Part shown: one piece after another, positions 1-56,880 of the stretch
Numbering within the stretch: position 1 is the stretch's first letter
Layout of the letters: each line of letters starts with the position of its first letter
Origin: Mobula hypostoma
Taxonomy: Eukaryota
Direction of reading: 5' to 3'
Assembly (NCBI RefSeq): GCF_963921235.1
Contig: NC_086097.1
Coordinates: 64,110,001 to 64,174,000, forward strand
Length of the DNA stretch: 64,000 nt
Translations under genes and position numbers: made by a program
Notes under the pieces: model-generated
Databases searched by the model: none
What the model was told of the DNA's origin: nothing
Seen by the model: only the letters and a program-made list of their open reading frames with translations

Positions 1-350
1 ATAATAGAGCAGAGAAACACGGTGCAAGGGTGATCACTTCGAGGTCTTGGATTGCTTAAAAAGGGTTTGATAAGGTAAATATGGAGAAAACCTTTGCACT
101 TCAGGGAAATTCCAAAACCAGGAAACGGATATTAGATTGTCACTGATAAATTCAAAGAGAATTCAGCACACATTTCTTTACCCAGTATGATAAGAATGTG
201 GAACTTGCTCTAATTTAAGGAAATATCAGAAATGCATTTGAAGTCAGGCTGGAAGAGAGGAATAGCAGAATATGTTGAAAGTCTAGATTACTGAGAGTGG
301 GTAAAGGCATGTGTGCAGCATAAATACTGACACTGAACAGTGTTTCCAAA
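1..350 (+). mobile_element. Highly degraded CR1 LINE 3' fragment
   Basis: Eroded similarity to CR1 ORF2 C-terminal DNA seen elsewhere in the window (ttctttacccagtatgataagaatgtggaac vs ttcttcacacagagagtggtgaatctgtggaat). Confidence 0.5.
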
Positions 351-849
351 CGCCTATAGGCCCAGGCAACTCTGTGTCTGTTATTGTAGCATTTGAAAAC
401 CTATACTTCTGTCTTTTACCAGTTCCTCTTTCAAATTGTTGGAAGTTGGTGGCGTGAGAGAAGTTTTGAAAGCATGTTTTCTCTTGTAGTTATGCAGACT
501 TCTGCAAACTTTGCAGGCTCTGGAATTTCCTGCCTAATTAAACTTTCTTTCCTTACCATTTGTGAGGCCCATCTGTTTGGTCATTTGGTATCTGTTTAGT
601 TGATTTCTATGTCACATTTTGTTTGAAACCACATCTCAAGGACATTGGAATGCTTTGAGGTTAAAGGCATTATATAAGCTGTTGTTTGATGTTGTACTTT
701 GAAAGAGTCAAAAAACACAACAGTGTGGTGAACACTGTAACTACTTTCAGGTCAGGTTTATGACATCTCCATTACTTTTGTATTTAATGTTCAGGTTTCT
801 CTAACTTTAGTTCATGATGCTGAGGTCAACTTTAGTATTAGTGTTGCTG

Positions 850-1046
850 TTCCTTTTGTGCCTTGTGGTGCATTGGGCAGCATTTTTGCTGTTTCTGCAG
901 CATTTGACCTTTTTTTATGAGGCTGATTTGCTAACTTGACTGTTGAATCCAGCACGGATGGAAAGAGTGCGAGGAGCCGGCCAGATCCAAACCTGGGATC
1001 ATTCGCCTTGAAGTCTGATGCTGATGCCACTACACCACCAGCCAGC
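850..1046 (-). mobile_element. tRNA-derived SINE (same family as 11623-11839), older copy
   Basis: Reverse complement reads gctggctggtggtgtagtggcatcagc...ggtttggatctggccggctcc, with A/B-box-like motifs colinear with the 11623 copy. Confidence 0.7.
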
Positions 1047-1517
1047 TGTTACTGTAATGTGTCCACGTAGTCATCAAGAATAGTATTTTATACAATTTTA
1101 GGCCAATTGTATACACAAAGTCATTTTGTATACAATAAAGTTGCCTGTTTTCCTTTTCTTTACACTCGATAAATCTAGTATTTCTCCTTCTAATTATCCA
1201 TATAGAACTATGTCAGATTATGCTATAATTCAACTTCCTTTTGTTATTTACCAGTCAATATGTTTAAAACATTTACGTTAGTTTTAATCTATCTGAGACC
1301 TTTTTGTTCACATGGGCAACACTGAAGGAGGGTAGAAAATGCAGTTTAATTTTCTGAAAATTTGCTAAGAGTTGGTTTTCTGACTGATTGACAGCCCGGT
1401 TGAATGAATTGGTCCCAGGTTAACTTCTGAGTGGAAAATACTGGTCAAACATGGATGGTCTGGGCAGAGCCAAGCTTTGAAAGCTGAAATAAGTTTGGAA
1501 TGGGTTGGTTGAAATAT

Positions 1518-1765
1518 TATAGAAACATAGAAAACCTACAGCACAATACAGGCTTTTCGGCCTACAAAGCTGTGCTGAAAATGTCCTTACTTTAGAACTA
1601 CCTAGGCTTACCCATATCCCTCTATCTTTCTAAGCTCCATATATCCATCCAGAAGTCTCTTAAAAGACCCTATCGTTTCCACTTCCACCACTGCTGCTGG
1701 CAGCCCATTCCACACATTCGCCACTCTACGTAAAAAAACTTACCCCTGACATCTCCTCTGTACCT
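1518..1765 (-). mobile_element. CR1 LINE 3' end
   Basis: atagaaacatagaaa tail followed by typical CR1 3'UTR and ORF2-end sequence. Confidence 0.75.
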
Positions 1766-1929
1766 AATATTACTGGGTACAACAGGACACTGCCCTTCAA
1801 GAGGCAAAAGTGTCTGTGACAACCTTGTTAGACTCCAATTCCACTCCATGTGGTTGGGTGCTTTGCTCTTAATTATATCAGAAATGACTAAGAAAAACGT
1901 TGAATTAAAAGGAAGCCCAGTGAAAAACA

Positions 1930-2156
1930 AGCCACACACGTCAAAGTTGTTGGTGAACGCAGCAGGCCAGGCAGCATCTCTAGGAAGAGGTGCAGCTGAC
2001 GTTTCGGGCCGAGACCCTTCGTCCTGACCCTTTGTCTCGGCCCGAAACGTTGACTGTACCTCTTCCTAGAGATGCTGTCTGGCCTGCTGCGTTCACCAAC
2101 AACTTTGATATGTGTTGCTTGAATTTCCAGCATCTGCAGATTTCCTCGTGTTTGCG
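1930..2156. mobile_element. Palindromic Penelope-like mini-element (two inverted pLTR arms)
   Basis: 1930-2023 is the reverse complement of ~2021-2119. A 13-bp TSD ccagtgaaaaaca lies at 1917-1929 and 2157-2169. The arms match the pLTR downstream of GIY-YIG-end sequence at 7768-8190. Confidence 0.85.
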
Positions 2157-2856
2157 CCAGTGAAAAACAGTTGCCCATTGGAAAATCTCACCATCAGCTT
2201 CCAGGGGAATCTAAGCATGCAGAATACATCCTATTTTATAGAATCATTCACATTCTGGAAATCTGGTAAAAGATGAATATTTACCTTGGAGACAAGTTAG
2301 AGTAGATTTTTGACAAGATTACCTCAATCATAAAAGGAGGCTGATAGTTATTCTTTTAGTTTCCTGTCAATCTTTTCTAAAGGATCTTTACGGATATTCT
2401 GACAAGCATCTGGAGAGTGATGGAGTTGAGTTAAGAGTTAGTGCTTAGAATTCTGGAGGTCCAATGTAGTGGCAATTTCAGGTACGAAAAAGAAACTTTA
2501 CTCAAGCTTATCGGCCAGATTTTTCTAATGTTGGGGATCTCATTTTTAGATTTAGGTTTTATAAGTGTAGCTCGATAATGGCATAGCAAAGTAACAAGAC
2601 AAACATTAAAGGGCGGAGAATCAGAGGACGCAGAAAGAAGGTGAACTACTCTGGATGAGTTTAGTTTCAAAGTGGATACAAAAGAGAAAACCAAAAGAAA
2701 ACTGAGTTTCAAAGAGAGAAAAAAGATAGGAAAAGAATATAACTTTTAAAAAAATGACATTCCAGTGTATCCTGAAATATTTCACAACATTAAGAACTGA
2801 GATTAAACATTTTAAATAGGTTTTATTCTTGATCAATGAAGTTGATTGGGATTCCG

Positions 2857-3450
2857 TTAACCATACAACAATTACAGCACGGAAACAGGCCATCTCAGCC
2901 CTTCTAGTCCATGCCGAACGCTTACTCTCACCTAGTCCCACCGACCTGCACTCAGCCCATAACCCTCCATTCCTTTCCTGTCCATATAGCTATCCAATTT
3001 AACTTTAAATGACAATATCAAACCTGCCTCAGCCACTTCTGCTGGATGCTCATTCCACACAGCTACCACTCTCTGACTAAAGAAGTTCCCCCTCATGTTA
3101 CCCCTAAACTTTTGCCCTTTAACTCTCAACTTATGTCCTCTTGTTTGAATCTTCCCTACTCTCAATGGAAAAAACCTATCCACGTCAACTCTATCAATCC
3201 CCCTCATAATTTTAAATACCTCTATCAAGTCCCCCCTCAACCTTCTGCAATCCAAAGAATAAAGACCCAACTTGTTCAACCTTTCTCTGTAACTTAGGTG
3301 ATGAAACCCAGGTAATATTCTAGTAAATCTTCTCTGTACTCTCTCTATTTTGTTGACACCTTTCCTATAATTCGGTGACCAGAACTGTACACAATACTCC
3401 AAATTTGGCCTTGTACAATTTCAACATTACATCCCAACTCCTATACTCAA
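2857..3450 (-). mobile_element. CR1 LINE, 5'-truncated (ORF2 C-terminus, ORF 2932-3402)
   Basis: Translation EYCVQFWSP...ERVQRRFTR...RRLRGDLIEVFK...FFSQRVV is a typical CR1 ORF2 C-terminus. Confidence 0.92.
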
Positions 3451-4739
3451 TTAAGGACTAAATAGGGAAGGAAGGTATTGCACTCTAGTTAGCAAGGCAG
3501 TGTAAATTAGCTCGAGAGTTGTAACAATTTGTACTAATTTGTTGATGACTTAAGTTTTCAGTGAAATCAGAATTTGCATCAAAACAGATCTTTACAATCT
3601 AAGGGTTTGCCAACAGTGTCATCTTTAATAAAACCTTGTACTTCCTGCTATTTCTGGATGGTGTTGAAGCTTTCATAATACTTTCTCTTTCTATCACTTT
3701 CATGATTACTGAAAACAAAAGTGACAGAAGGAATTTCTTCTGAAGAATGCAATTGAAAGTACTGGTCACAGAGCTATTTCCATTAAAATTGATATATGGG
3801 AGCTCTACCAAGTGGCCGGGATATTGAATGCAGGGTCCATTTGCAATGCCTATTCTAATTCCTTTGCAAATTTGCTTTCAGACAAAGGTAAATTTTAATG
3901 TGAACTTTCCACTTCAATTCTGTCCTCTTTGCAATAGTGTAACTGATATATCATAAATGAAATGTATTAAAGACAATAGACTAGCATACAAATAAAGAGT
4001 GATTCTATAAATAAACGCTATTGGTTGGAAATTGATTGGGACCTTTAGACAGGAAAACCATGGCATGAGTTTGATCCAGTAGTGAATGTGAACTGTACTG
4101 AACACCCAAGTCTCTTTGAAGACTATCTGCAAAGTCCATTTCTTTTTCAATTTATTAAAATGTAGTTTGTAATCATGGTACTGCAATAGTATCATCTGTG
4201 AGAAAGTGTTTTTAGCAATAATTATGATAATCAAAAGTAAAACAGATTGCAAACATTGTATTTCACTCATAGGTTGTCATCAGGGGGAGAGAGTGAACTT
4301 GCTGATCAGTATCTAAGACAGAGCTAGGTATATTCCTGCAAGTAGTCATACTTTATTGATCCCGGGAGAAATCGGTTTTCCCCCGTAGAAGTAGAAGATA
4401 TCTCAAGATAGGAAAGCCACTAAATGCTGATAAATCAGCTTACCTTGGCCTCCTGAACTTTGTGTGCTTAACTTTCAGATTGGAGAGGAGATTCCCAAAA
4501 TATCCCACACTCCCATAAATTAACCAAAAGCTTTTCCATTTTGTTTCCTGCTGGGTGGTGATTACCTGAGTACAGGGTAGATTTCACAAGTCATTAAGTG
4601 AGTCACTATGGGCTGTGCCATGAGTTTATCCAAATGTGAATCGAATGTTATCTAACCCCTGCCTTAATCATGCACCATTCTGCGGAACTAACAAATGAAA
4701 TAAAAGCAAGATACATTTTGTGTGAATATATGAGGCTGT

Positions 4740-5050
4740 ATGACCAGCATGTATAATGAGTGCACTGCATGCATGTGTCCATTGAGTACTTGTATGTTTG
4801 TATCAATTTGTCCAGGTGTGTAGTGTGCACTCATAAATGTGTTTCCATATACCCACTTATGTATGCGCCTGTTTGGGTATCTGCGTGTACATTATCAATG
4901 TGCATGTACATTATTCTGTGCATACATGTCCACATATACTTTTTATATGTGTATAGGTGTACATCATATATGCTTTGGCATCTGTATTTGTATAACTGTG
5001 TGTCTCCTTCCATGTGGGCATGTACATATGTTTCCATTTGTGTGCATGAA
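4740..5050. repeat. Degenerate TG/TA-rich low-complexity tract (similar tract at ~5620-5750)
   Basis: Alternating purine-pyrimidine runs (gtgtgt, atgtat). The overlapping ORFs are C/V/Y/M/H-rich artefacts. Confidence 0.7.
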
Positions 5051-5958
5051 CGTAATTAAGCCCCTGGCGCTGGGGAAGTTGTTTTTCCTTCCACTGAATT
5101 TGGAGACTGTTGCTGAGAGGCTGTTAGTGGTGTTTTTTGAGTGACTTGAGTCATCTGCTCCAGTTGATAATGCCAGACAGATCACATCATTCACATGCCA
5201 GTCTCCAGACATCTAAGAGAGACAAGCTTTTCCAAACTCTGGCGTGGAGGGCATTACCAGGTCAAAGGAGGAAAAGTTACAAAGATATGCCTCAATACCG
5301 TCTTGAAAAAGTACAATGCCCCCCAGCCCCTGGGGACCTCTGGTTTTTGATGGATCAAATTAGAGAAGCTGCACTTGGTATGGTAGTTAATATCTTGAGT
5401 CCATGCATTGGAAGCAGACAGAAGTAAACTACAGAAGGAACACGTCCTCTCACAATCTACTATCCTCCTGCCCTTTCAGGGACCCGCTGTCTAATTAATG
5501 TAAGGGTCTGCAGTTCCCACAATGGCATCATCAGTCACCACTGAACCCTCAACACTGGATTGCAAACAAGTTACCCCTGTTCCCAAGAGACTGGATAAAA
5601 GACATGGGTGTTTATCCATGTATACATGTGAACCTGTGTGCTCATGTATGCACCATGTATATGCATGTATAGAAGAGACAGAATTTGTAACCATTAATGT
5701 GGATGTGTGTGTGTTTGTGTGTCTATGATGTATGTCTGGGTATACATTCAACAGCATTATTGAATAAAGTATGCCTGAAATAAAGATTTAACAAAGTATT
5801 GAATATTCTGTTGACTATTGTTTAATACATTTTTAGATTAAATGTGAGAAAGTCCATTTTTATCTTACGATTTTAATTTCTTTCCATTTTATAACTTACA
5901 CTACAGTCATGATAATGCATTAAAATGTTTTGGTATTTTTTAAGTTATAATTAAGACA

Positions 5959-6696
5959 CGGTACTGTGCAAATGTGTTAGGCATATATATATAGCTAGGG
6001 TCCCATAGAACCATAGAACCATAGAAACTACAGCACAGAAACAGGCCTTTTGGCCCTTCTTGGTTGTGCCGAACCATTTTCTGCCTAGTCCCACTGACCT
6101 GCACACGGACCATATCCCTCCATACACCTCCCATCCATGTATCTGTCCAATTTATTCTTAAATGTTAAAAAAGAACCCGCATTTACCACCTCGTCTGGCA
6201 GCTCATTCCATACTCCCACCACTCTCTGTGTGAAGAAGCCCCCCCTAATGTTCCCTTTAAACTTTTCCCCCCTCACCCTTAACCCATGTCCTCTGGTTTT
6301 TTTCTCCCCTTGCCTCAGTGGAAAAAGCCTGCTTGCATTCACTCTATCTATACCCATCATAATTTTATATACCTGTATCAAATCTCCCCTCATTCTTCTA
6401 CGCTCCAGGGAATAAAGTCCTAACCTATTCAACCTTTCTCTGTAACTGAGTTTCTCAAGTCCTGGCAACATCCTTGTAAACCTTCTCTGCACTCTTTCAA
6501 CCTTATTTATATCCTTCCTGTAATTTGGTGACCAAAACTGAACACAATACTCCAGATTCGGCCTCACCAATGCCTTATACAACCTCATCATAACATTCCA
6601 GCTCTTATACTCAATACTTTGATTAATAAAGGCTAATGTACCAAAAGCTCTCTTTACAACCCTATCCAAAGTCCCTAAGAACTTTGCATTGTACTG
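5959..6696. mobile_element. Small palindromic Tc1-type MITE split by a CR1 insertion
   Basis: TIR halves gtactgtgcaaatgtgttaggca and taagaactttgcattgtactg; an uninterrupted sibling lies at 7098-7226. Confidence 0.65.
6005..6670 (-). mobile_element. Young CR1 LINE, 5'-truncated (ORF 6085-6669)
   Basis: Uninterrupted 194-aa CR1 ORF2 C-terminus, (atagaacc)n tail, TSD gtccc at 6000-6004 and 6671-6675. Confidence 0.93.
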
Positions 6697-7097
6697 TTGT
6701 CATTTTATGTATTACACTGTAATGCTGCTGCAAAAAATCTAATTTCATGACATATATGAGTGATGATAAACCTGATTGTGATATGGGTCTCTATTGTGGA
6801 CTGAGAGTGGGAAGGGGACAGGGAGAGGGGAATCTTGGTTGGGAAAAGGGTAAAGGAGAGGGGAGGGAGTGGGAAGAACCAAAGAGACCTTCTGTAATGA
6901 TCAATAAACCAATTGTTTGGAATCAACTGACCTTGACTGGTGTCTCAGGAATGGGTGTGTCTGTACCCACACCACCCCCTGCCCTGGTGCTCTCTCGCTG
7001 CCACCTGTCCCACACCCCTCCCACCATGCTCCATCTTCCCCATTCCTTTGCTCCAGCCAGACTTACAAACCCACTCTCGGCTCCACGTTGACAAGTA

Positions 7098-7137
7098 CAG
7101 TACTGTGCAAAAATCTTAGGCACCCAAGCTATATGTA

Positions 7138-7180
<43 letters not shown>

Positions 7181-7226
7181 GAACGTGTATATCTATATAT
7201 ATGGCTAAGACTTTTGCACAGTATGG
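7098..7226. mobile_element. Tc1-type MITE with microsatellite core
   Basis: TA|cagtactgtgcaaaaatcttagg ... ctaagacttttgcacagtatgg|TA, with (CT)n(AT)n in the centre. Confidence 0.75.
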
Positions 7227-7767
7227 TACATTCGAGGTAATTATTACAGGGTCAAACAGGAAAGTACAACAGATCACAAATGAAAATTGCCTTGAGGGTA
7301 ATTCCTGATTACATAAAACAGTATAGTCAAATAAGAAAATTACTCAATTTGAATAATAAAATAACTCACACAAATACAAATCTCTGACATCTGAAAGATA
7401 TCCAATGGAGGAAGGTCTTTAGAAGACAAGTTATCCACTGAAATTGGAGAGGATCCTGAAATTTACCGAATGCAGTGGATTCTGGTTAATTGGGACACAA
7501 ATGGGACCAGTACATTTTGGCCCAATTCAGCAGCTGCCTCAATTAGCTGAAGCTCCATGGAAATAATTAAAAAGGTATAAAAAAAGACAAACTACCTTTT
7601 AGTTGTGTAACTAATTATGCATTTAAATGAAACACATAGAAAATTAGAACACTATCAATACTACTACAGTATACTAAAACTGTGTATTGCTAATAGTTAT
7701 CGGCAAAGTAGTGTAAGCTGACATGTTCCTTTGATTGACTGTAAATGAACAAAATAATCATAGACAT

Positions 7768-8190
7768 GAACATTGACTTCTCAAACTTCTGCTAATGCCC
7801 CACCTCCCCCTCATACCCCAACCCTTATTTATTTATATACTCACATTCTTTTTCTCTCTCTCCTTTTTCTCCCTCTGTCCCTCTCACTATACCCCTTGCC
7901 CATCCTCTGGGTTTTCCCCCCCTCCCCCTTTTCTTTCTCCCTGGGCCTCCTGTCCCGTAATCCTCTCATATCCCTTTTACCAATCACCTGTCCAGCTCTT
8001 GGCTCCATCCCTCCTCCTCCTGTCTTCTCCTATCATTTCGGATCTTCCCCCCCCCCACTTTCAAATCTCTTACTATCTCTTCTTTCAGTTAGTCCTGACG
8101 AAGGGTCTCGGCCTGAAACGTCGACTGTACCTCTTCCTAGAGATGCTGCCTGGCCTGCTGCGTTCACCAGCAACTTTGATGTGTGTTGCC
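7768..8190 (+). mobile_element. Penelope-like element 3' fragment (end of GIY-YIG, pyrimidine-rich UTR, pLTR)
   Basis: Begins with (M)NIDFSNFC*, matching the GMNIEFSNFW end of ORF 15352-15768. TSD tagacat at 7761-7767 and 8191-8197. Confidence 0.85.
8091..8126 (+). ncRNA. Minimal type I hammerhead ribozyme motif (best-preserved copy)
   Basis: agtc-CTGACGA-A-GGGT(CTCG)GCCT-GAAA-CGTC-gact. Catalytic boxes are intact, stem I is agtc/gact, stem II is a hairpin, and an ACGT palindrome replaces stem III. Confidence 0.8.
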
Positions 8191-9147
8191 TAGACATCTA
8201 GTGTAGATTTGGGACTGCCTTCATACAAAGCTATCAACAAATGCATCCTCCAAATCTTTACTTTTGTTGTAACATTAAAGATGATAGTCAATACCTTCAA
8301 ATTCTTCAAAGTTTCTAATTTGTAGTGAAATCGTTTCATTTTCACTCCTGGCCATTTCTGGCATCTCCAAGCCTGAATGCCTGAAGCCACAGTAGGCAAA
8401 ACAGTTCAGAATTGTGTCTTACTGCTTATTTCTCTGCAACTATCAGTGATAAAAGTCATTTCTTTTTGAACGCAAGTGCACGCACCTGAAACTATTTAAA
8501 AACTGTTTGCTCTAAGCATAGTGTAGTGTTTAACGGCCACACAAGTGCACATGTCTGATGCTAGTTAGAAACTGTTTGGCACCAATAAACTTCTGCACCA
8601 ATAAAGTAGCCTAGTGTACCAAATAAACGAAGGGAATTCTGGCTATTTTCCCGATTAATTTTTGTTCTTTAAGGGTTGTCCCAAATAAGCAGATACCCCA
8701 ATTAACTGGAATCCATTGTATTCTGCTTTACATTAGATTTTACAATACAAAAACAAAATATCAAGTGCAGCTTGTATTTTCTCATTTGTTTGTACTACTT
8801 ATCTGTCAAACTTTCATAAAATACTCTTATAATTGCTGCTTTAAGAGAATATAGCACAACTATATTGTAGATCTGCCGATTACACAGACTTGCCTCAAAC
8901 CATGAGCTATTTTTAGCTGCACATTTTGCACAGAGTATACCTTGACAGTAGAAAGTCTCTGCAAAATCATTTGAATTAAGCTGCTGGATAGGTAAACCAG
9001 TATCAGTGTCTTTGCCCCGCCCATCCTCAGCACTGAGAGTCCTCTGATGCTCAACAAGTATCAGTGGCTAGATTGCACTACCCCATGCCTGAGACCAGAC
9101 TTCCAGTTATGCCCCCTTAAAATATCACCCAGAACCTAGAGAAAGTT

Positions 9148-9276
9148 GCAAGGGCCTCGGTCCGAAATGTCAACTGTGCTCTTTTCCGTAGATGCTGCCT
9201 GGCCTGCTGAGTTCCTCCAGCATTTTGTGTGTGTTGCCTGGATTCCCAGCATCTGCAGATTTTCTCTTGTTTGTGA
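9148..9276 (+). mobile_element. Penelope-like solo pLTR with tail
   Basis: aagggcctcggtccgaaatgtcaactg...agatgctgcctggcctgctg...ccagcatctgcagattttctc, colinear with the other pLTR copies. Confidence 0.8.
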
Positions 9277-10029
9277 ACGTTACAAGGAGTATTTCATTGC
9301 AAGAAAGAACTATTGGATTCAGCACAGCACCACACGATGACAGAAAACCATCTGAGCATGTCATATCAAATCTTCAGTTAAGCTTGCTCTGTACACCCAT
9401 ATAGAAATTGCTCTGTAGGATCCATATAAAGTCTACAAGTAAATGCAATGTAATGAATAACTTGTGTTACTAATACACCAAAATTGCAAAATCTGGCCTA
9501 ATTCAACAATACAAACAAGGCAAAACAGAGGAAATTAAGATAGTTCCATAAAGACAGGGAAACCCTGTGCAGATGTTCTCAAAGTATTCTTGAGAGAAAT
9601 GTTACATCCTCACTCTCCCTTGGGAATCCCTAGCTCTGCAATGCACAAAAAGGAGAAGGAACATACAGAAAAAACGCTGAGCTCCTTGAGTCACAATTGC
9701 AGGAGCACGTGGGGTTCTACAGAGACACTGACAAAGCACACAACTTGCAAAGTCCCTGTTCTGTCCACACCATCTAAGGCAGAGGCTGTGTATCCTACGT
9801 AAGACTCTACAGCCCTGAGGACTCACAGAAATGAAATAGAATGGAAGTTTAGAAACCCTAATCCTGAGGGATTACTTTACACAAAGACATTCCAGTTTTT
9901 TGCTGTGTAGTCAGCGTGAGGGGGGTCCATGGAAGAGAGACTGAGGCTTTCTTAAATTTCTATCATATCCTTTGGAAGTTTCACTTTCTTTTAAAGGATA
10001 ATAAATAATGATTATTCTCCCATAGCAAG

Positions 10030-11560
10030 TCAATTTCAAAATACATTATTATCAAGGTAGTTATACAGGAGACAACTCTGATTAATCCTCCCTCAGGCAA
10101 CCACGAAACAAAGAAACAGCATGGAATCAACTCCTAGAAAAACCAAAAACACCCGATGCCCAAAAAAGACAAAGAACAAATCGAGCAAGCAGCACATTGA
10201 GTATCAACATCAAGGCTACGTCTACACTACGCCGGATAATTTTGAAAACGCCGGTTTTGAGTAAAATGACAGGCGTACACACTAAGCGTTTTTCAAAATA
10301 TCTCTGTCCACACTAACGCGGATATTTGGGCGAATCTCCTCTACTGGGCACACGCAGGACACACAGAAAACAAGCGAAGAGGAAACGGTATACTTAGTGT
10401 GCGTTTGTCCAGTTACAGAGTAGAAAAACTTAAAAGGAATTGCTCTTGGCTCTCGCGCAGGAGGACTTAAAACTAAAAGAAAACAGATACTGGAGCGTAT
10501 GGAGGCAACCGACAGGGAGTTCACAGACAGTATGACCCAGCTGACAACGAACATTGAAAAACTGACTAACTCTGTTGCATTAATAAAGCACCTTGTTAAA
10601 TGTATAAAACATGTCTGCATCAGTGTTATCTTGTATTTCCATACAATGTTACGTTAGGCTGTTACACATCTATTGTCAGAGAAGTACTTGCATAAATGGG
10701 TAAACCACCTTCATACAAGCAAGGACAGAAAACAGGGCAAAGTGAGTATAATTATTTATTCAGCAAACTACGGGTCAAAGTATTTGGTGAGTACATTTCT
10801 AACTCTTCTGGCTTCAGTCACATTGCCACCTGTTCTGAAATTGTTAGGTTCTGCGAAGCGTGGAATCAAATATCGCTGTGATGATTGTACGCTCTAGTAT
10901 CAATTGTTTGGCGACAATAAAGTAGTAATAATAATAATAATAATAATTAGAAGAAGAAAGTAATGAAATGCCGTGCTGCCGCCATCTGTTCCGGCACGTC
11001 ATGGCAGCGGTTTTAAAAAGCTCCGGTTACCCCATACACACTGCAAAGGATATTAGGCGCTTTGAGATTTATTCACACTGGAGACCGTTTCTGAAAATCT
11101 CCGTTTTCGAGGGATGAAAACGCCGTTTTAGTGTGGACAGAGGGTCAAAACGAAGAGAAAAAGCTTTGTTTTCAAAATTATCCGGTGTAGTGTGGATGTA
11201 GCCCAAACCAGAAATCCAGGAGTATTCAGTTTAGTTCGGTTCAGCACCATTAGCTGACTACAGACCATGGAGCCAGTCTTCACCGAAGCGCCCCCGTGCT
11301 CACTGATCGGCCTCATCAAACCGCTTAGAATTCTGTAACACATGCAACATGAACCTCAACATCCCACAGCCGCGAGTCTTGGAATCCAAGATTCCTGCAC
11401 TTCCTTCTGACAGCAGTTAATGAGAGGAAGAGGGAGACCCGTCAGATATGGCGCTGAACACCTGCCTGTCCTCTGCTCTCATCTTTGTTGGTTTTCAACC
11501 TTGCTCGATGCCTCAATCAGAGAGAAGCAATCGAGTCAATCCTGGGCTCGTGTTTTCACA
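10030..11560 (-). mobile_element. Non-coding element with a Rex1-type tail, host of the Harbinger insertion
   Basis: Left end resembles the minus-strand Rex1 3' tails in this window (tttattatcaag...acaactctga). Boundaries are approximate. Confidence 0.4.
10214..11203. mobile_element. PIF/Harbinger-type non-autonomous DNA transposon
   Basis: ~36-bp TIRs ggctacgtctacactacgccggataattttgaaaac and gttttcaaaattatccggtgtagtgtggatgtagcc, 3-bp TSD caa, subterminal inverted repeats. Confidence 0.85.
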
Positions 11561-11622
11561 ATTCAACCAATGAAAACTAATCTGTTAGTCATTTTAAAGT
11601 TTATTTGGTTGCTATAGTGATC

Positions 11623-11839
11623 GCCGGCTGGTGGCGTAGTGGCATCAGCGCCGGACTTCGGAGCAAAGGCTCACGAGTTCGAATCCAGCCGGCTCCCTTG
11701 CACGCTTTCGATCTGTGCTGGGTTGAGCGTCGAGCTAGCAACTCGGCCTTGTAAAAATAAGAAAGCCTGCTAAAAAAAAATGCCATCATGACAGCGTCCT
11801 GATGACTCCACTCGGAGTTAAGGGCTTCTTCTTTTTCTT
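11623..11839 (+). mobile_element. Young tRNA-derived SINE
   Basis: A box tggcgtagtgg, B box gagttcgaatcc, head closed by gccggctgg/ccagccggc, (ttc)-rich tail, 11-bp TSD ctatagtgatc at 11612-11622 and 11840-11850. Confidence 0.9.
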
Positions 11840-13019
11840 CTATAGTGATCAGTAGCACCAACACTAGATAAGCAGCAATTAAACTTCGTATTTCAGCTTT
11901 TTGTTTAGATCTTCCCCCCCTTTCTTATGCCTTGTTAGAGTAATGGAAGTAATACTGGCCCAGAATTTATATTCAGGGTGCATTAGTGGCAGCAGCTTTT
12001 CATTACATTAACATTTATTCTGAGTTTTCAAACTCGAATATACAGATTTAGACCTATATGAACTGAGCAAACAACTGTGTTTCTCCTTACATGAGCAGGT
12101 TGAAGATTCAATGCCACATGTTGAAACTACTTTCTGATACCATAGTTTGTTATGCTGTCTTCAATAGCTGTTCTCTGGGCTTCTGCTGTGTCATATTAAA
12201 AGATTATTTTAAAGATTCCCTCAAGCTCTTCCATCTTAATATCACCCTCTGGCTAGAAATACGAGATACTTTGCAATTGTTCAATCTGTGGATCGCTAGG
12301 TTCATGACCATTACAAATTGCTCCTAGTTTGTAGGTATGTGGTAGAACCTGAGGGGAACTGAGAGGAATGTTGGGAGAGTAAAATGGGATTAGTATAAAT
12401 TAATATTAATGCATTTTTAATGGTTGGCAAGAATTTACCAGCATTCCAATTTATCAGACTGCCAGATGCATCACGATGATACGCCAAATAGGCTACATAT
12501 ATGGCAAATGATAGTGCATGACATCATTGGCACTTAACCAATGAGGACACAGTATGTAATGACCCATTTTAAAGCTGATTTAGTGAACACCTTCATTCCC
12601 GGGACACATTCTGAGTGCAAAGGTGGTACCAGTATATTGCCGTCATGCTCGTCCACAGATCCTAAATAGACTTTGGGACTATTTAGTATCCGTTTTCTAA
12701 ACAGTATAATATCCATGAGAAGGACTGGCTCTTTAACTGATCAGATGTAGGTTCCTCTTAGAGCACACGGAATCAGTCAGAGTAATTACTTCAAGCACAT
12801 GACTGGTTGATTAGCTGTTTGCATGAACAAGCTACTCTAAGGAGCTGTCAATCCCTGATCAATGAACAATGGTTTCAGGGATGCTGCTGTGAAAAGACAT
12901 GAGCATTGGTAGTAAACGCGAAGATTTTCCAGAATCTTGTCCCCCTTCTTGGGCTCCTTCAGAGGGGGCTCCTTCATAATGTTATACACTATAAGGGTTA
13001 TTAACACAAAAACTTCATG

Positions 13020-13290
13020 CCATCTTAAAAGTATTTTCCCCCCAGGCAGTTAATCTGATTAATCATTCTGGATAAACCCCTTCCCACTTCTCTCTAACTA
13101 TTACCTCAGTCACTGCGATCTGTGTTTACATTGCATATACACACTGGGATTTTATTCCTTACCTCTAACCTCCAATTTATCTTTTAAATAATTCCTTATA
13201 ATTGTTGAATGCTGCTATTTTTCTGTTGCAAGTTGCACCCTGACACTGCAGCAAATTCCTACTATATCTGGTGAATAAAATTGATCTCTG
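13020..13290 (+). mobile_element. Rex1/Babar LINE 3' end, degraded
   Basis: cttaaaagtattttccccccaggcagttaatctgattaa (LK.SFFPQAV.LI.-like) followed by a 3'UTR ending aataaa...gatc. Confidence 0.55.
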
Positions 13291-14448
13291 ATTATGGTAA
13301 TTGCACGCACAGCTATGCAGAATTTTGGCCTAGTTTCAAGAATTTTAATGTTGGCTATTTGTGAACGATTCTAGACTTTCTCGGATATTGAATGATGAGT
13401 CAGAATTCCTTCAGCAAATACGTCATGACAATGGGTATGTCCATGGGGGAAAATGACAGCTTTTTAGGGAAATTCAGTCAAAAGTAGTCTTGAGGGTGAA
13501 TTCTGTTTGAAGCTGGCAGTCTCAGAAAAAAAAGAGCAAATTAAAAAAAAAAAGCTCTGGGAAATATTATGGCCTATTTATTACACCACAACACAGACGT
13601 TAAGGTCCCAGGCTGAGCTTTTCATAGCTGACGCTGTCTCGCACCATGTCTCTTGAGTGGGTAGGTCCTAACAAGGAAATAATGACATTTAAAATGAACT
13701 ACTATAGTCTTCCTGTTGGAAGTTTTGTGGTGACTTGGGGCAGTGTTTCACCAAAATGAAACGGCTGTTGATATACCACAATTTCCTGGAAAACCCTCCA
13801 CAGCCTGGCATGTGGGTGAGTGTTCAGAGAGCCAGATTAGGACTAAGGTTTGGCAGGAGAAAGTAAAGTGCATGTAAGGCTTGCTGGTTTAAAGAGGAGC
13901 ATATTCTTATTGCCACATTGGGATCCCTTGAGGTCGTAAGTACTCAGAAAAGCCCTCCGGTTTCATGAAGTGCCTGCTGATCAAAATTACATCCCAAAAG
14001 GGACTAAGACCATGGGATTCCCAACCTGGAGTCCACAGATCGCTCAGTCCATGGCAAAAAAAAGGTTGAACTCCTGTCCTCAAGGTTCTCACATTAACAG
14101 CCACGCATTACAGAACGAGGTTGAGATTAACTGCGCAGGGCAGATTCCTGCAGCAGTGGCCATGAGAAATCAAGGCTCTCATGCTAGGCTATACCTTTCA
14201 CCAATCCTCCAGCTCCATTGATCTCTTTACCTTCACTCACTGGGTGGTGGGGAAGGTCACTTCTGCTACGTGCAGTACAGCCAAACACACAGACACCATT
14301 TTGGTTCTACGCAAGGGCATTCTTCTGCTCATTATGACAGGCATGGTTATGTGACGATGCAGAAAGGGGAGAATTGCAGTGGCTAATTAACCTACCAGCA
14401 GGTCCCTGGAATGTGGGAGAAAACTAGAGCACCAGGAGTAAACTAGAG

Positions 14449-14676
14449 CAGTGGTCCCCAGCCACCAACCCACGGACCGGTACCAGGACGTAAAGCATAC
14501 GCTACCAGGCCGCGAGGAAACGATATGAAATGATAGGAGTCAGCTGCACCTTTCCTCATTCCCTGTCACGCACTGTTGAACTTGGACACCCCCCCCCCCA
14601 CCCGGGTCGGCCGGTCCGCAAGAATATTGTCAATACTAAACCGGTCCGCGGTGCAATAAAGGGTTGGGGACCCCTG
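14449..14676. mobile_element. hAT (Charlie-type) MITE inserted in a V-SINE remnant
   Basis: TIRs cagtggtcccca and tggggacccctg; 8-bp TSD aactagag/aactatag. Confidence 0.85.
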
Positions 14677-14809
14677 AACTATAGCACCAGGAGAAAACCC
14701 ATTCAGTCACAAGAAAAATCTACAGACTCTGCAGATACACGGTCTACAGCACTTTATTCACCCTACATAACTTTAACAAGTTGTCAGTACTTTCTTCTGT
14801 CTCAGGTGG

Positions 14810-14917
14810 GTACTTTCCTACCCACCTGGCTTCACCCATCACCTTCTAGCTTTCCTCCTTCCCCTTCCCCCACCTTTTTGTCTGGCATCATCCCCCTCCC
14901 TTTCCAGTCCTGAAGAA
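14810..14917 (+). mobile_element. Penelope-like 3'UTR fragment ending at the hammerhead core
   Basis: Pyrimidine-rich UTR ending ...tttccagtcCTGAAGAA. Confidence 0.6.
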
Positions 14918-15043
14918 TCAAACTGGGCAAAAAAACATACAGTGAAATGTATCCACAAAATACTCTGCAGATGCTGGGGTCAAAGCAACACACACAACAC
15001 GCTGGAGGAACTCAGCAGGTCGGGCAGCATCCGTGGAAAAGAT

Positions 15044-15081
15044 CGGTCAATGTTTCAGGCCGAGACCCTTCGTCAGGACTG
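15044..15081 (-). ncRNA. Minimal hammerhead ribozyme motif
   Basis: Reverse complement cagtc-CTGACGA-A-GGGTCTCGGCCT-GAAA-CATT-gaccg. The ACGT palindrome is mutated. Confidence 0.65.
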
Positions 15082-15351
15082 AAGATGGAAGGGGCAGAGG
15101 CCCTATAAAGAAGGTGGGGGGAGGGTGGGAAGGAGAAGGCTGGTGGGTTCCAGGTGAAAAACTAGTAAGAGGAAAGATAAAGGGGTGGGGGAGGGGGAAC
15201 AGGGAGGGGATAGTCAGGAAAGGTGAAGAAGGAATAGGGGAAAGCACAATGGGTAGAGGAAGGAGGCAGAACGATGAGGCAAATGATAGGCAGCTGGAGG
15301 AGGGGGCAGAGTGAAACTGGGATGGTGGAAAGGAGGGGGAGGGGGAGGGAA

Positions 15352-15670
15352 TTACCAGAAGTTGGAGAATTCAATGTTCATGCCAAGGGGCTGGAGACTA
15401 CCTAGACGGTATATGAGGTGTTGCTCCTCCAACCTGAGTTTAGCCTCATCATGGCAGTAGAGAAGGCCATGTATGGACATATCCAAATAGGAAGCAGAGT
15501 TAAAGGGGGTGGCAACTGGGAGATCCTGTCTGTTGTGGCGGACGGAGTGGAGGTGCTCAACGAAGCGGTCCCCCAATCTGCGTCGGGTTTCACCGATGTA
15601 GAAGATGCCGCACCGGGAGCACCGGATGCAATAGATGACCCCAACAGACTCACAAGCGAAGTGTTGTCTC
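15352..15670 (-). CDS. GIY-YIG endonuclease domain of a Penelope-like element (partial ORF)
   Basis: F.CES.GVIYCIRCSRCGIFYIGETRRRLGDRFVEH...PVAT.FN...EQHLIYRLGSLQPLGMN. It has the VIY/YIG motifs, CxxC, and conserved R, E and N typical of PLE endonucleases. Confidence 0.9.
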
Positions 15671-15829
15671 AATGTGTCGACTGCATCAGTGACCAACACA
15701 ATCCTAGCATGTGTTGGGGGCAGTCTACAAGTGTCGCCATGCTTCCAGTGCCAACTTAGTATGCCCACAACTTACTGACCCATTACGCCTTTGGAATGTA
15801 GGGGGAAACTGGAGGATCTGGAGGAAAAA

Positions 15830-17085: not shown

Positions 17086-18819
17086 AGCCCTCCTACATAC
17101 CCCTCCGTTTTTCTATCATCCCATGTGCCTATCCTGGGGTTTATTAAATGCCTCTAATGTACCTGCCTTTACCACCACCCCGGCAGCACAATCCAATCCA
17201 CACACTCACCACTCTCTGTGTGAAAAACTCACCTCTGACATCCCCCCTGTACTTTCCTCTAATCATCTTAAAATTAGGCCCTTTTAGGGCGACCCTGGAA
17301 TTGCCTGCTTTTATACAAAGACTCTCAAAGGGATGCAGAGGAACTTTCTGAGATAATCTGAAACATCAGTGGCAGAAGGTGGAACATGCAGATGTTCCTG
17401 AATTGCTGATTGATTCTTTAGAAACGTCTGCAGTGGCATCGTTTTCTTTTTAGCTGATGCAGTTTCCACAGATCTCTTGTTTCTCAGCTCTCTGCTCTAT
17501 TTTTGTCCTGTGCTTGTCAAACAGGAGACATGCACTGACCATACTCAATGGTTTTCTTTATCTTTAATTTCACAAAGCACTTGTTTCATAAAATTAAAGA
17601 TAATGAAAACCAGAACTGAATAGATATCTTGACCCCTTCAGTATTTCAGTAACTGCATCTGCAGTACGTTCTGTACAGGAAATGGCTGCTTGCCTCAGTC
17701 TATATGTTTATTTCTAAAGAGGTGGAGCAATTTTGACAAACACAGCCTGATTGAGCTCTCGATTTAATGGCTGGGTAACATAAGAAGTGGGGTCTCGCAG
17801 TCCCTAGGCAGCAGAATAGAATCCTTATCCTTATGCAAATGCACTTCCAGCTTCCCCAATGAATATTATAGATTATTCACAATTATAGAGCCTTCTATCT
17901 GATTGGTAAGAAGTAGGATATTGCACCTATAGAGTTATACAGGTTTACAGCACAGACGAAAGTCATCTCACTCTAGTGTCCACACTGGTCAAAATAATGG
18001 ACTTTAGCTTTCTGCATAATATCGGTTCTTGATTCCCCCAACCCTGTGAAACCAGTGCTCATCTGGGTACTTTTTTGAAGATCTTGAGGAGAGTTTCGAC
18101 ATCTACCAAGATTTCAGGCAGTGAATGCTTGACACATTCCAATTTTTTTCAATTCCCCAGTAACCCTCTATGAATATCTTTCCAACCAATAAGTGAGTGA
18201 ATTCCGTCATCTTGTACTTCAGGGATGACGTGGAGGTGGCGAGCTTTTCTTGAAGGGGGATTTGAGCTGGGGTTACAGGACTTTTCTGACCTACATCCTT
18301 CTACATGCAAATTCAGCTCATTGAATTTATAGAGCAGTTAAAGCTTCTCAGACAGACCCTAAATAATGAAAAGTGAAACTGCCATAGGGATTAGTGGAGG
18401 GGAGGGGATTTTTGGCAGCCATGTAACCAATAAATAACTTTGGAAGTGGCATGTTCAATTGAAATGTTGATTTAGCCCATGTTTATGGGAGCAACCTGTC
18501 TCAGTGAGGGAGCAGACAAGAGAGTCAGCAGATGCTGGAGCTAAAAGCAGCGCAGCAAGCAGCGTCCGTGGAGGCAAAGGAACAGGCAATGTTCCTGCCG
18601 AGACCCTCCCTCATCAGCCTGAAACACTAAGCAACCCTTTGCCCCCAGGGGCAGGGAGCTCTTGGTCAGGCACCTTCTAAGGGTACCGCAGATCCGCAGG
18701 GCCGGCAGAGATACAAGCGCTGCTGTGGGTCACTCCGCAACAGATCTCCTCCACAAGCCTTTGAGAATGTTCTTTGGTGGCCGCAAACAATCGCCATGGT
18801 TAGCCAGAGCACTGTGGCA

Positions 18820-19105
18820 CACCCAGGGGAGATAGTGCCTCAGAGTTTGAATGATTAGGGTTTAGTCCTGACCTCTGCTGCTGTCTGTGTGGCGTTGGCA
18901 TGTTCCGCTTGGGTTTCCTTTCAAAAGCGTGAGGGTGAGGGCTAGTACAATAACTAGCCATTCTGAATTGTTTCTGGTGTGTGGGCAAGTGGTGAATCTG
19001 AATGCAGGGTAAAAGGTTACAGGGAATATTAGTGGAGAAATGTGATTGCTCTGTGAGACAATATAGACATAAAAGGCTGAAATGATCTCTTTCTGTATCT
19101 TAAGG
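18820..19105 (+). mobile_element. Degraded tRNA-derived V-domain SINE (HE1-like)
   Basis: ctgtctgtgtggcgttggcatgttcc...gggtttcc central motif and a CR1-like tail. Confidence 0.5.
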
Positions 19106-19522
19106 AATATCAAAATAAAAATGAGGTCTCCATGCTATCAGAGCCCTTAAGCATTGCACTCAGAATGATCCATCTGAGCAGCACCTGAGGGCTGTGCTTA
19201 GAACTGATCCTGTGCCATTTCCTGGCATTACTGGGGATTCCAGCCCTGAGAAGCAGTTCTGGAGGTGTGCTGTGGTCTAGCCACATGAAGTCTGAACTTA
19301 CTGTCTTTGCTTTATAAAGGCTAATATTTCAATATTTTTCTCATGATTTTGGATCCACAGGTGTTATCAGAACATTTACAGCAAGTTTCGGGAACTAGGC
19401 TGAGGGACTCAGAGTGGAGGAATGAGCTGTTGATGAGAAATGATGAGGGTAGCAGAAACTGATTCCCCTGCACCCCCCCCCCAGTAACCCAGGGTAACTC
19501 ACTGAACTTGAACTGATGATTG

Positions 19523-28029: not shown

Positions 28030-28975
28030 TTTTGTCAAGGTAACATATACAGAAAGGTGTCAGAAAAGGGCCAGTAACACCATGGGAGATCCCACCTGCC
28101 CTACTCGCGGACTGTTAGTCCCACTCCCACCAGGGAGGAGGCTACATAGTAGCATTCATGCTTGGACCACCAGACTCAAAAAAATAGTTACTTTCCCCAA
28201 ACAACACCTTCACCCATTAACTCTATCACTAACATGAGGAAATCTGCAGATGCTGGAAATTCAAGCAACACACACAAAATGCTGGTGGAATGCAGCAGGC
28301 CAGGCAGCATCTCTAGGAAGAGGTACAGTCAACGTTTTGGGCCGAGACCCTTCATCAGGACTAACTGAAAGAAGAGATAGTAAGAGATTTGAAAGTGGGA
28401 GGGGGAGGGGGAGATCCGAAATGATAGGAGAAGACAGGAGAGGGAGGGATGGAGCCAAGAGCTGGGAAGTTGATTGGTAAAGGGGATACGAGGCTGGAGA
28501 AGGGAGAGGATCATGGGACAGGAGGCCTAGGGAGAAAGAAAGGGGGAGGGGGGGAAACCCAGAGGATGGGCAAGGAGTTATAGTGAGAGGGACAGAGGGA
28601 GAAAAAAGAGAGAAAAAAAAGGGGAAAGAAAAACATATAATTAATAAATAAATAAACAAATAAGGGATGCGGTAGGAAGGGGAGGTGGGGCATTAACGGA
28701 AGTTAGAGAAGTCAATGTTCACGCCATCAGGTTGGAGGCTACTATCACTACTTTATATTTCCCATCAATCATCTTATGTACAGCCTAGATCACTTTATGG
28801 ACATACAATCAATCAATGTAGAAAAGCTATCTTATCTATGTATATTGATCGTGTTTATTTATTATTATTATTGTGTTCTTTATCTTCTGTGTTTTTTAAC
28901 TACATCGGATCTGGAGTAACAATTATTTTGTTCTGCTTACATTTTTGTATAGGAAGTGACATTAAATAATCTTGA
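28030..28975 (+). mobile_element. Rex1/Babar LINE 3' end, interrupted by a PLE
   Basis: YTERCQKRASN..DPT.P..GL.VPLP.GRRL...TTRLK, followed by a 3'UTR ending attaaataatcttga. Confidence 0.8.
28232..28741 (-). mobile_element. Penelope-like element 3' fragment with tail
   Basis: Close sibling of 7768-8190. TSD ctatcacta at 28223-28231 and 28742-28750. Hammerhead motif at 28327-28362 with GAAA changed to AAAA. Confidence 0.87.
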
Positions 28976-30790: not shown

Positions 30791-31005
30791 ATGACCCTCC
30801 ATGGGGCAACGGCAAGACGGCCTGACCTACCCCACGGAGGCGAGAACAAGACAAGACAGAACATGACCCCCTGCGGGGCAATGGCAAGACTGCCTGACTT
30901 GCCCCACAGAGGCGAGGAGCAGACAAGACAAAACATGACCCCCACGGGGCAACAGCAAGATGGCCTGACTTGCCCCACAGAGGCGAGGACAAGACAAGAC
31001 AAGAC
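30791..31005. repeat. 72-bp tandem repeat, 3 copies
   Basis: atgacc recurs at 30791, 30863 and 30935 with colinear units. Confidence 0.9.
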
Positions 31006-46965: not shown

Positions 46966-47503
46966 ACCTATAGAAAACATAGCTTGTCTTTCATAAGTGG
47001 ACCATAACTGCACGCAATACATCAAGTATAATCTCAACAGGGCTCTGAAATCTATAGCAGGATATCCTTGCTCCTGCACACAAGTCCTCTTGCTGTGAAG
47101 ATCAAAAGGCGACTTGCTTTACCTTTTGATGTACCTGTATGTTTGCTTTAAGTGAGTGGTGTATAGAACACTGAAATTTCATTCAACATCAACACTTCCT
47201 GATCTAGCAGCTTTTAAAAAGTGCTGATCCCAGCCCTGAAACGGTGACTGTTTATTCCTTACCATAGATGCTGCCCGTCCAGCTGAGCTCCTCCAGCATT
47301 TTGTGTGTGTTGCTCAGCATTTAAAAAATACCCATTCCATTTCTTCTACTCAAGTGGATAGCTTCACCATCATTCACATTGCACTGACTCTGCCACATTT
47401 TTGCCCAATTACTCAATCCTTCTAAGACACTTTGAAGCCACGCTGTATCCTCTTCACAATTCATAATCATTTGCAAACTCATAATTGTTATATTGAAATA
47501 GAA

Positions 47504-51579: not shown

Positions 51580-52210
51580 AGAATAGAGTCATAGAGTCAG
51601 AGTCTTAGAGCACTACTGCACAGAAACAGGCCCTATTCCCAACTAGTTCGTGCCAAACAATTATTATAGAACATTGAATATCAAACAATACAACACAGGA
51701 ACAGGCCCTTCAGCCCACAGTGTTGTGCTGAAACAAGTAAATTAGAAGTGAGATGGCTAACTAAAATAATCTCTTCTGCCTACACAATATCCATGTTCTG
51801 CCTAGTCCTTAGACCTGCACCTGTACGCATCCATATACCTATCCAAATTTCTCTTAAGTGTTGAAATCAAATCCACATCCACCACTTGCTCTGACAGCTC
51901 ATTCCACACTCTCACCACCCTCTGAGAGGAGACATTCCCCCTCAGGCTCCCCCTTGAATGTTTCACCTTTCACCCTTAACCCTTAACATTCACTTCCATG
52001 GATTTTGCCCGACCTGCTGAGCTCCTCAAGCATTTTGTGTGTGTTGCTTTGGATTTCCAGCATCTAGAGAATTTCTCCTGTTTATCTCGAATGGGTACCT
52101 AGGAGAGCAAGCAGACCGAGTGCTGGTAAATGGGATTAGCATAGATGTTTGGTTCCTGATATTTGTTGGGTTGGAGGCCTGTTTTTTTTTCTCTTTGATT
52201 CTGTGATTTT
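51580..52210. mobile_element. Cluster of CR1 3' ends and a PLE pLTR fragment (~51990-52085)
   Basis: (atagagtc)n tail, CR1 3'UTR motifs, and gacctgctgagctcc...tttccagcatct. Confidence 0.7.
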
Positions 52211-54274: not shown

Positions 54275-55452
54275 ATAATCAGAATCAGGTTATCATCACT
54301 AACATATGCCATGAAATCTGTTGTTTTGTGGCAGTACTACAGTGCAAGATATTTAAAAAATTACTGTAAGTACACAATCAGGAAAGCACGTCAATGCCTC
54401 TACTTTCTGAGGAGGTTGAAGAGAGCTGGATCATGCACATCTATACTCGCAGCATTCTACAGATATGCAGTGGAGATCATCCCATCAAGCAGCATCACGG
54501 CATGGTACAGAAACTGCACTGCGGCAGACAGGAAGGCCCTGCAGCGGGTAGTCAAAACTGCCCAACGCATCACCATCATCGAACTATCAGCCATCAAGTA
54601 CACGGACACACACACATACACACTACAAGAAATGTGACATTGTCCTGAAAATAACTGGGAAAAATGAGGTATGAAATTGGAAAACAAGAGAAGAAATCAA
54701 CCATTATTATAATCTTTAACCGAGATCTGCAGGTTTGCCCACAGCTGGGCAATTCACAAGAGGAGGCCCGGTTTCCTGAGCAGGGTGCTATCCATGGGCT
54801 GTGGATCTGTGGGCTTCCCTGAGCAGATGCACCGAGCTGCAGGAAAGTCCACAGATTCCAGCTGTCACCCTGGAAAATCCACCCTCCACTCCTGCACAAG
54901 GCCCATTCAAATGAATGAGAGAAAATAGCTGCTGGCAGAATACCATTATTTGAGTTAATTAAGCTATAGTATTTTTAATAGGGTCTCAGTTATTTTACGT
55001 GGTTATCATTGACACCTATTGAATGTGGGGATAAGCTAACTGTATATAACAGCACAAGGACCACCAGAACCACCAGACTGAAAAATAGTTACTCTCAGCA
55101 AGCAGTAAGGCTGATCAACACCTTCACTCACTAACCCACCCCTCCACACCCCCAACCACAACTATTTTATCATTTCCTGTCAGTCACATTATGTACAAAC
55201 ACTCCTGTGCCTAGCGTCACTTTATGGACATACAATCAATCTATGTATATAAGCTATCTTATGTATTTATATTTTTTGTGCTTTTTTTGTGCTTCATCAG
55301 ATCTAGAGTAACAATTATTTGATGAAGGGTCTCGGCCTGAAACGTCGGCTGTACCTCTTCCTAGAGATGCTGCCTGGCCTGCTGCGTTCACCAGCAACTT
55401 TGCTGTGTGTTGCTAACAATTATTTTGTTCTCTTTCACACTTGGGTACTGGA
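54275..55452. mobile_element. Rex1/Babar remnant interrupted by an inverted duplication and a pLTR
   Basis: KARQCLYFLRRLKRAG...ITAWY.NCTAADRKALQRVVKTAQRI runs to ~54600; TTRLKNSY.QQAVRLIN resumes at ~55060. Confidence 0.85.
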
Positions 55453-56097: not shown

Positions 56098-56651
56098 TCA
56101 TGCCAACTACCCTGAGTTTGCCATCTCCTGACTGGCAAGGAGCAGAATGTTCTCTTGTCAGCTCTCCACCCCAATACCAAATCCTACAATGAGCAACAGA
56201 TGCTGGAACAGGCTTCTTGCTTTCTCACTGAGCTTGTTTTGCTGGTGAGAAATGTACCTGTGTATTTTTCTTTCTGATTTGCTATTCTTTTAAGGAGCAA
56301 AGATTATTCAAGATTTATTGAGGAGCAGCAAATAGCAATTTTAAAGTAATGAGAACAAATGGCTTTTAAGGAGGAAAGCACGGTTTCTGAAATAATTAGA
56401 AGAAGAAAATATTACTCCAAGTAATCAAAGTCAAATTACTTGAAAATTGCTGCAATATGTCTTGAATTAATAAAAGTACATCGAATAATCTTACAATTAT
56501 ATCTATTTTCTTTTTTAAGAGGTCTGACTAGGCTTTAATTGTTTATCTGCTGCAATAAAATACATCAAAGATTAAGGAAAGCGGCACAAATATGTTCTTC
56601 CGTTTCAAAATAAGTGTGCATATCTTGATTGTAAATGCTGCGGGTTCCAAG

Positions 56652-56880
56652 TAACACACACAAAATGCTGGAGGAACTCAGCAGGTCAGGCAGCATCTAT
56701 GGACGAGAATGAACAGTCGACATTTCGGGCTGAGACCCTTCAGCGCGACCGCAAGGGTCTCCGCCCGAAACGTCGTCTGCATATTCCCGTCCATAGATGC
56801 TGTCTGACCTGCTGAGTTACTCCAGCATTTGTGTGTTACTCTGAATTTCCAGCATTTGCAGAATATCTTTTGTTCTTGAT
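56652..56880. mobile_element. Palindromic Penelope-like mini-element
   Basis: Inverted pLTR arms meet at ~56740-56752. A 17-bp TSD atgctgc(g/a)ggttccaag lies at 56635-56651 and 56881-56897. Confidence 0.85.

Follow-up and report, generated by a model that had tools for sequence, protein, structure and literature searches.

Minimal hammerhead motif in a truncated Penelope-like insertion

The window analyzed here is a 64,000-nucleotide stretch of the Mobula hypostoma genome (contig NC_086097.1, forward-strand positions 64,110,001 to 64,174,000), and all window coordinates are counted from its first nucleotide. At 7768..8190 (+), it carries a 5′-truncated insertion (~425 bp) of a Penelope-like element (PLE) that comprises the tip of the element's open reading frame (ORF), a ~290-nt spacer, a hammerhead motif, and 67 nt leading to the proximal 3′ end. 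The insertion is 86% identical over ~430 nt to the full-length copies L167 and L168 (blastn), and its final ORF codons (7766..7795, +) read MNIDFSNFC*, compared to MNIDFSNFR* at the end of the intact ORF. It is flanked by the likely target-site duplication TAGACAT, whose left copy (7761..7767, +) shares a few bases with the end of the element and whose right copy is found at 8191..8197 (+).

The motif itself (8091..8126, +; predicted cut after position 8122) was recovered in a descriptor scan as an intact minimal type I hammerhead that fits the published consensus for PLE minimal hammerhead ribozymes (min-HHRs), and it is the sole strict descriptor match in the window. Written as RNA, positions 8090-8127 read UAGUC, CUGACGA, an extra A, GGGU(CUCG)GCCU, GAA, ACGU, C, and GACUG. 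The CUGANGA and GAAA boxes and the NUH cut triplet are all present, as is the single additional base between positions 9 and 10.1; stem I is AGUC/GACU (5 bp, including a U-G pair), and positions 15.2-16.2 are palindromic (ACGU), with no loop 3. The original prediction described this anatomy (the two boxes, stems I and II, the GUC triplet, and the ACGT palindrome) as it stands in the sequence. It was also right about a 4-bp stem II but overlooked that this stem, GGGU(CUCG)GCCU, opens with a G10.1-U11.1 pair rather than G-C and that wobbles make up two of its four pairs.

Strict motifs of this kind were found 15 times in 880 kb of unselected Mobula DNA and not once in any of five dinucleotide shuffles. 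Among the 13 matches of Rfam covariance models to the window (E values up to 5) there was no hammerhead family, as expected because the motif has no stem III. The matches to Rfam miRNA families fell on inverted repeats or microsatellites, far below the cutoff, and were discarded. The fold z-score (−0.37) is unremarkable.

Family copies and other features of the window

A family profile based on 63 natural, unselected copies detected 12 family members in the window, of which one is intact and the other 11 are damaged or borderline. Two head-to-head pairs, both joined inside the motif, consist of family A fragments with the full catalytic core in neither arm (1929..2152) and of older fragments with broken cores (56635..56862). 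The forward strand further carries an older relic without CUGANGA (9150..9276), a 5′ half ending after CTGAAGAA (14855..14917), a relic without the 5′ half of the motif (47235..47314), one that retains the downstream block only (51987..52082), and a 94-bp insertion that begins within the CUGA box, lacks the 5′ stem I strand (55320..55413), and has a 12-bp target duplication on either side (55309-55320 and 55414-55425). On the reverse strand are a decayed relic (18533..18613), a family A copy with G12A, U17, and a broken core (28226..28720, motif at 28366), and a family B copy (14970..15085) that keeps the 11 core bases but has a broken palindrome (ACAU) and a short stem I. The CUGANGA box or the 5′ stem I strand is wholly or partly missing at 55320, 9150, 2027(−), 2034, 47235, 56751(−), and 56753. 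All positions in the original list of copies do exist, and all are among the 12 family members apart from the one at 14905, which is a 5′ half only; the list omitted 18533-18613 and 51987-52049.

The linkage of one copy to a GIY-YIG ORF, also noted at the outset, holds for the motif at 15085(−): a fragment of a GIY-YIG C-terminal ORF (15352..15771, −) lies ~270 nt upstream of it. The Pfam GIY-YIG match of this fragment (E = 1.8e-4) scores 22.2 bits, marginally under the 22.6-bit cutoff, and the fragment, which is 79% identical to the family A protein across 107 aa, belongs to sister family B.

Several other features were observed in the window. A long inverted repeat (54711-55043 and 55660-55993; 97% complementary) encloses the 55320 insertion, and a microsatellite-edged inverted repeat (71 nt, arms separated by 54 nt) is located at 36179-36374. 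At 30790-31488 there are tandem arrays whose units measure 72 nt and 35 nt. Fragments of LINE-type reverse transcriptases (RTs), which we take to be CR1-like, are encoded at 19527-20954 (RVT_1, E = 3.7e-34), 6085-6699, 2932-3420, and 38569-41337, and the ORFs at 26548-27213 and 42543-43655 resemble Tc1/mariner transposase fragments. Head-to-head pairs with the junction in or beside the 5′ part of the motif were seen at 1929-2152 and 56635-56862, as well as at L029:435-640, L091:7250-7446, and L169:8968-9152.

The carrier element

Searches with the two families' proteins yielded 181,440 and 238,787 first-look candidates, and the analysis covered 20 loci of family A whose open frames are long. 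In L168, an intact single ORF of 1015 aa encodes an RT plus a GIY-YIG endonuclease at the C terminus (Pfam matches, each below its cutoff: RVT_1, E = 9e-4; GIY-YIG, E = 1e-3), with a DKG motif and a CX4CX2C linker (CKQNKCYTC) between the RT and the endonuclease. L167 has the pLTR-ORF-pLTR organization, in which two same-strand motifs 3,512 bp apart surround the ORF; its ATG lies 138 nt after the 5′ cut site, and its frame lacks the usual C terminus at its end. The motif follows the end of the ORF in all 20 long-ORF loci, where it is located in the pLTR, sense to the ORF. Tandem pLTRs, inverted partners, and a 30- to 40-bp tail are all present in the element. Among named proteins, the nearest come from Chiloscyllium punctatum (72% and 69% identity), indicative of a cartilaginous-fish host. 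The carrier is likely a Neptune-type Penelope-like retrotransposon. The L168 ORF (L168:4796-7843) has a long Pro/Ser/Thr-rich stretch (approximately residues 160 to 285) ahead of the RT, and in L176, L177, and L178 this stretch is apparently duplicated in part, in frame.

Constraint and covariation of the motif

Between families A and B, the motif is identical at 32 of 36 positions, compared to 41 of 73 four-fold sites, and the 265- to 290-nt spacer that precedes it is 54% identical (55% when shuffled). The 45 nt downstream of the motif are also conserved (32/45), and given this conserved 3′ block, a part of the constraint may reflect protein binding.

More distant relatives were drawn from 80 metagenome loci with related ORFs, 27 of which reach the ORF end, 25 with enough downstream DNA. 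Within 600 nt after the ORF, a sense motif was found in 9 of these 25 loci and was absent from the other 16; there were no antisense motifs, and none occurred in shuffles. An alignment of 15 motifs, 5 from Mobula and 10 selected from 22 distant matches by descriptor and similar length, gave a covariation score of 0.787 versus 0.250 for shuffled alignments (0/500), with an invariant core and 6 of 9 pairs changed on both sides; the descriptor-picked rows make this alignment lean to structure, and not all 15 represent independent lineages. The catalytic bases are invariant out to relatives with roughly 45 to 55% protein identity, and the stems differ. Core conservation with stem covariation, proposed at the outset as the test that could refute the hammerhead, is thus what is found between lineages. 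Among these relatives, L235:1618-1660 (−) has the U3-A8 core variant described in PMC4209133, and the stem III palindromes of L257, L264, L265, and L226 are longer (ACCGGU) or different (AGCU).

These comparisons bear on whether the motif is a chance resemblance multiplied by transposition. The copy count does reflect one amplified source, and neither the Rfam search of the window nor the fold z-score singles out a hammerhead; against this, distant relatives have an identical core in the same position and on the same strand, with compensatory changes in the stems, so that the chance reading is largely refuted and is now scarcely credible. Consensus fit, pLTR position, core invariance, and stem covariation support identifying the motif as the minimal hammerhead of a PLE pLTR. 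On this sequence evidence, the 8091 motif is a minimal hammerhead of the known PLE kind, and what is new is this family and its copy number.

Within the genome, selection on the inserted copies is a different matter. For the 37,107 copies that are letter-identical to the focal 34-mer, there are 238 post-insertion mutants at the catalytic A6 and 189 at the stem position A1.2, which has the same trinucleotide context (ratio of 1.26, p = 0.02); catalytic A6 is not protected after insertion. The ratio is not taken as selection for inactivation, since it concerns one pair of sites whose wider contexts differ. Eight small within-genome clusters, gap-affected and underpowered, gave no significant difference between core and flank (p = 0.11; p = 0.045 for core plus stems).

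Genome-wide copy number and the cutting capacity of dispersed copies

A 34-base pattern with N7 and position 11.1 left free has 45,476 exact matches in the genome, compared to none for the reversed pattern, i.e., one per 76 kb or 0.84 per 64 kb. Sampling of 880 kb, taken as 88 unselected stretches of 10 kb each from ten large contigs, gave a similar figure of 1.1 intact motifs per 64 kb (95% interval, 0.6 to 1.7). The same sample contains 123 to 146 family matches, depending on the query (~9 to 11 per 64 kb), which extrapolates to a family total of roughly 0.5 million genome-wide; all 11 invariant bases and H17 are kept in 29 of the 91 sampled copies that cover the core. The suggestion that every 64 kb holds several self-cleaving modules is therefore unsupported: 9 to 11 relics are present per 64 kb, about one of them intact.

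In the original prediction, the dispersed copies were further proposed to act as self-cleaving modules able to cut any host transcript running through them. The number and density of exact copies favor such a view, as does the ability, in principle, of identical palindromic copies to pair in trans, and a preprint describes the tandem retrozymes of Xenopus as avoiding introns and exons (bioRxiv 10.64898/2026.07.22.740005). A copy can act on one strand only, though, and its stem III needs a second copy, and such partners are distant: for all 15 sampled intact copies, the respective 10 kb contains no intact partner on the same strand, and the nearest one to the focal copy is 59 kb away. The first 100 exact matches listed on contig C1 include 2 with a same-strand partner within 4 kb, none with one within 1 kb, and 18 that belong to head-to-head pairs; the members of such a pair are on opposite strands and cannot be part of one transcript strand. 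Published single min-HHRs showed no cleavage in vitro, and dimers showed low cleavage (PMC4209133).

The predicted folds point in the same direction. In the monomer, an alternative UGAC/GUCG helix is predicted to trap the core, and stem I has a predicted probability of ~0.1 in a context of 150 to 540 nt. For the double hammerhead, folding is predicted to give −11.5 kcal/mol, a less stable state than two monomers in the inactive form (−22.0), with folding energies that omit the non-canonical core pairs; a distant relative folds equally poorly (−9.5 versus −24.6), so the energies do not single out this Mobula family.

In the search for a host gene around the focal copy, Pfam analysis of 19 window ORFs gave one weak match, under the cutoff; a homolog search with 44175-44531 found nothing; a crude exon scan around 8091 showed no convincing gene; and no GT-AG joint was seen among the 15 listed of the 196 joints of contigs (presumed to be RNA) that align to 1-20000. 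With a single intact copy among the 12 in the window and the catalytic A6 unprotected, the claim that any host transcript could be cut is unsupported; the dispersed copies appear unlikely to cut host RNA, and we regard their being active modules as quite improbable.

The G10.1-U11.1 subfamily, insertion breakpoints, and role of the motif

The G10.1-U11.1 pair has reached fixation in the youngest subfamily, being present at 20 of 20 long-ORF loci. Among 107 clustered family A copies, 84 have U11.1 and 22 have C11.1, and the U copies are less diverged than the C copies (1.2% versus 2.5%, p = 0.001); in family B, C11.1 is found in 23 of 26 copies. The G-U pair is not new, because it is also present in the cichlid, coelacanth, and limpet rows of the published alignment; in PLE min-HHRs, G10.1-C11.1 is typical but not universal.

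Insertion breakpoints were studied in 38 young copies from 1.144 Mb of unselected DNA that are at least 88% identical to L168 and reach the tail; the focal copy falls below this filter, and 4 copies extend beyond the 1.5-kb reference. The 5′ ends of 10 of the 38 copies are located 21 to 33 nt upstream of the cut, at the outer edge of the motif, compared with 7 in the 260 nt that follow (p = 6e-8); no 5′ end is within 3 nt of the predicted cut. Genomic copies thus give no sign of cut templates, and because no 5′ ends lie at the cut, the templates of these copies were presumably uncut or religated. The 5′ edge of the motif could represent an RNA start or, alternatively, a site where the RT stops. 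The 3′ ends are bimodal, with 18 of 38 at +65 to +74 and 15 of 38 at +95 to +104, the signature of the tail. One locus, L169:2291-5472 (−), has a complete 1015-aa ORF and a 5′ end ~5 to 7 nt past the predicted cut, a single case that is compatible with a cut template.

The edge-clustered 5′ ends, with none at the cut, would also suit a motif kept mainly as a structural signal (an RNA 5′ edge, a protein-binding site, or an RT stop) whose cutting has been lost or is incidental. Fixation of the weaker G10.1-U11.1 pair in the youngest copies and the predicted trapping of the monomer core are in line with this reading, and so is the report that ribozyme-dead RNA of the anole element inserts normally in vitro (PMC11167929). 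It is harder to reconcile with catalytic bases that stay invariant across distant relatives while the stems change, with the occurrence of the same G-U pair in published motifs, and with the cleavage of the anole motif in the presence of the element's protein (PMC11167929). A mainly structural motif is a rather unlikely alternative.

We consider it highly probable from the available sequences that this amplified PLE terminal-repeat motif serves the element's own RNA and that the dispersed single copies are near-inert passengers. In a transcript of the pLTR-ORF-pLTR form, the two motifs would pair via ACGU and swapped stem I strands, probably assisted by the element's protein, and a weak cut after GUC would shorten the RNA to a single unit's length. 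Reverse transcription might then begin at one of two sites ~67 or ~100 nt downstream of the cut and would usually copy across an uncut motif; if the uncut motif is usually copied through, every sufficiently long 5′-truncated insertion would carry one copy of it, which would decay later. A more far-reaching reading is that the more than 45,000 near-identical, self-complementary motifs make up a latent genome-wide RNA-cutting system, in which expressed element RNA pairs in trans with sense copies in host pre-mRNAs, the protein acts as a chaperone, and U11.1 is an attenuation that permitted expansion; we view it as very improbable.

Comparison with known systems

The Mobula motif closely resembles the PLE min-HHRs described in PMC4209133, sharing the CUGANGA box, the extra base, stem II, the GAAA-CG-U-H segment, and a short stem I, as well as the pLTR location and the prevalence of dispersed single copies with some opposite-strand pairs. 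It differs in abundance (45,476 exact copies, as opposed to 4,000 in coelacanth and 9,000 in Xenopus) and in that the Mobula copies are very uniform, with a youngest subfamily of the G10.1-U11.1 type, a pair that the alignment in that paper also has in a few species. No cartilaginous fish is among the alignment rows inspected, and supplement file 2 of PMC4209133 gave no match for shark, skate, Callorhinchus, or Leucoraja; a search of the literature by title, incomplete in its coverage, found no cartilaginous-fish PLE hammerhead; published supplements may list such elements.

PAc, the Poseidon element of Anolis carolinensis (Frangieh et al. 2024, PMC11167929), similarly combines an RT and C-terminal GIY-YIG with a hammerhead at the pLTR/ORF junction and has two classes of 3′ ends ~35 nt apart, attributed to the tail and, in the anole, to two RT start sites. 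Its ORF starts inside the ribozyme, whereas the Mobula cut lies 138 nt before the ATG. The anole motif was reported to be cleaved solely with the element's protein, its ribozyme-dead RNA to insert normally in vitro, and no RNA-seq ends to fall at the cleavage site.

In contrast to Penelope/Poseidon proteins, described as lacking the CX2-5CxxC linker zinc finger, the Mobula protein has this linker, which marks Neptune or Nematis (PMC8557442). Neptune elements share with it the C-terminal GIY-YIG, the two Cys residues between the GIY and YIG boxes, and the zinc-finger linker (Craig et al. 2021, PMC8557442), along with pLTRs, inverted 5′-truncated partners, and the 30- to 40-bp tail; the likely placement in Neptune comes from the linker, which Nematis shares. 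A difference from the description in PMC8557442 is that the Mobula insertion sites at 8091 and 55320 are not microsatellites.

Non-LTR retrozymes, reported in one chondrichthyan, also carry a type I hammerhead derived from PLE pLTRs (bioRxiv 10.64898/2026.07.22.740005), but they form tandem arrays in which every unit contains its own hammerhead, whereas the Mobula copies are dispersed truncations of an autonomous element. Identity with retrozymes was rejected for lack of tandem arrangement (same-strand partners in 0/15 cases within 10 kb and in 0/100 listed copies within 1 kb).

To these systems the Mobula genome adds scale, with 37,107 letter-identical motifs of a single young family that has intact ORFs. 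It is a good place to ask whether PLE minimal hammerheads cut in vivo, a question presented as open in PMC4209133 and PMC11167929, and the edge-clustered insertion starts and the fixed G-U pair offer testable clues to the role of the motif in the transposition cycle.
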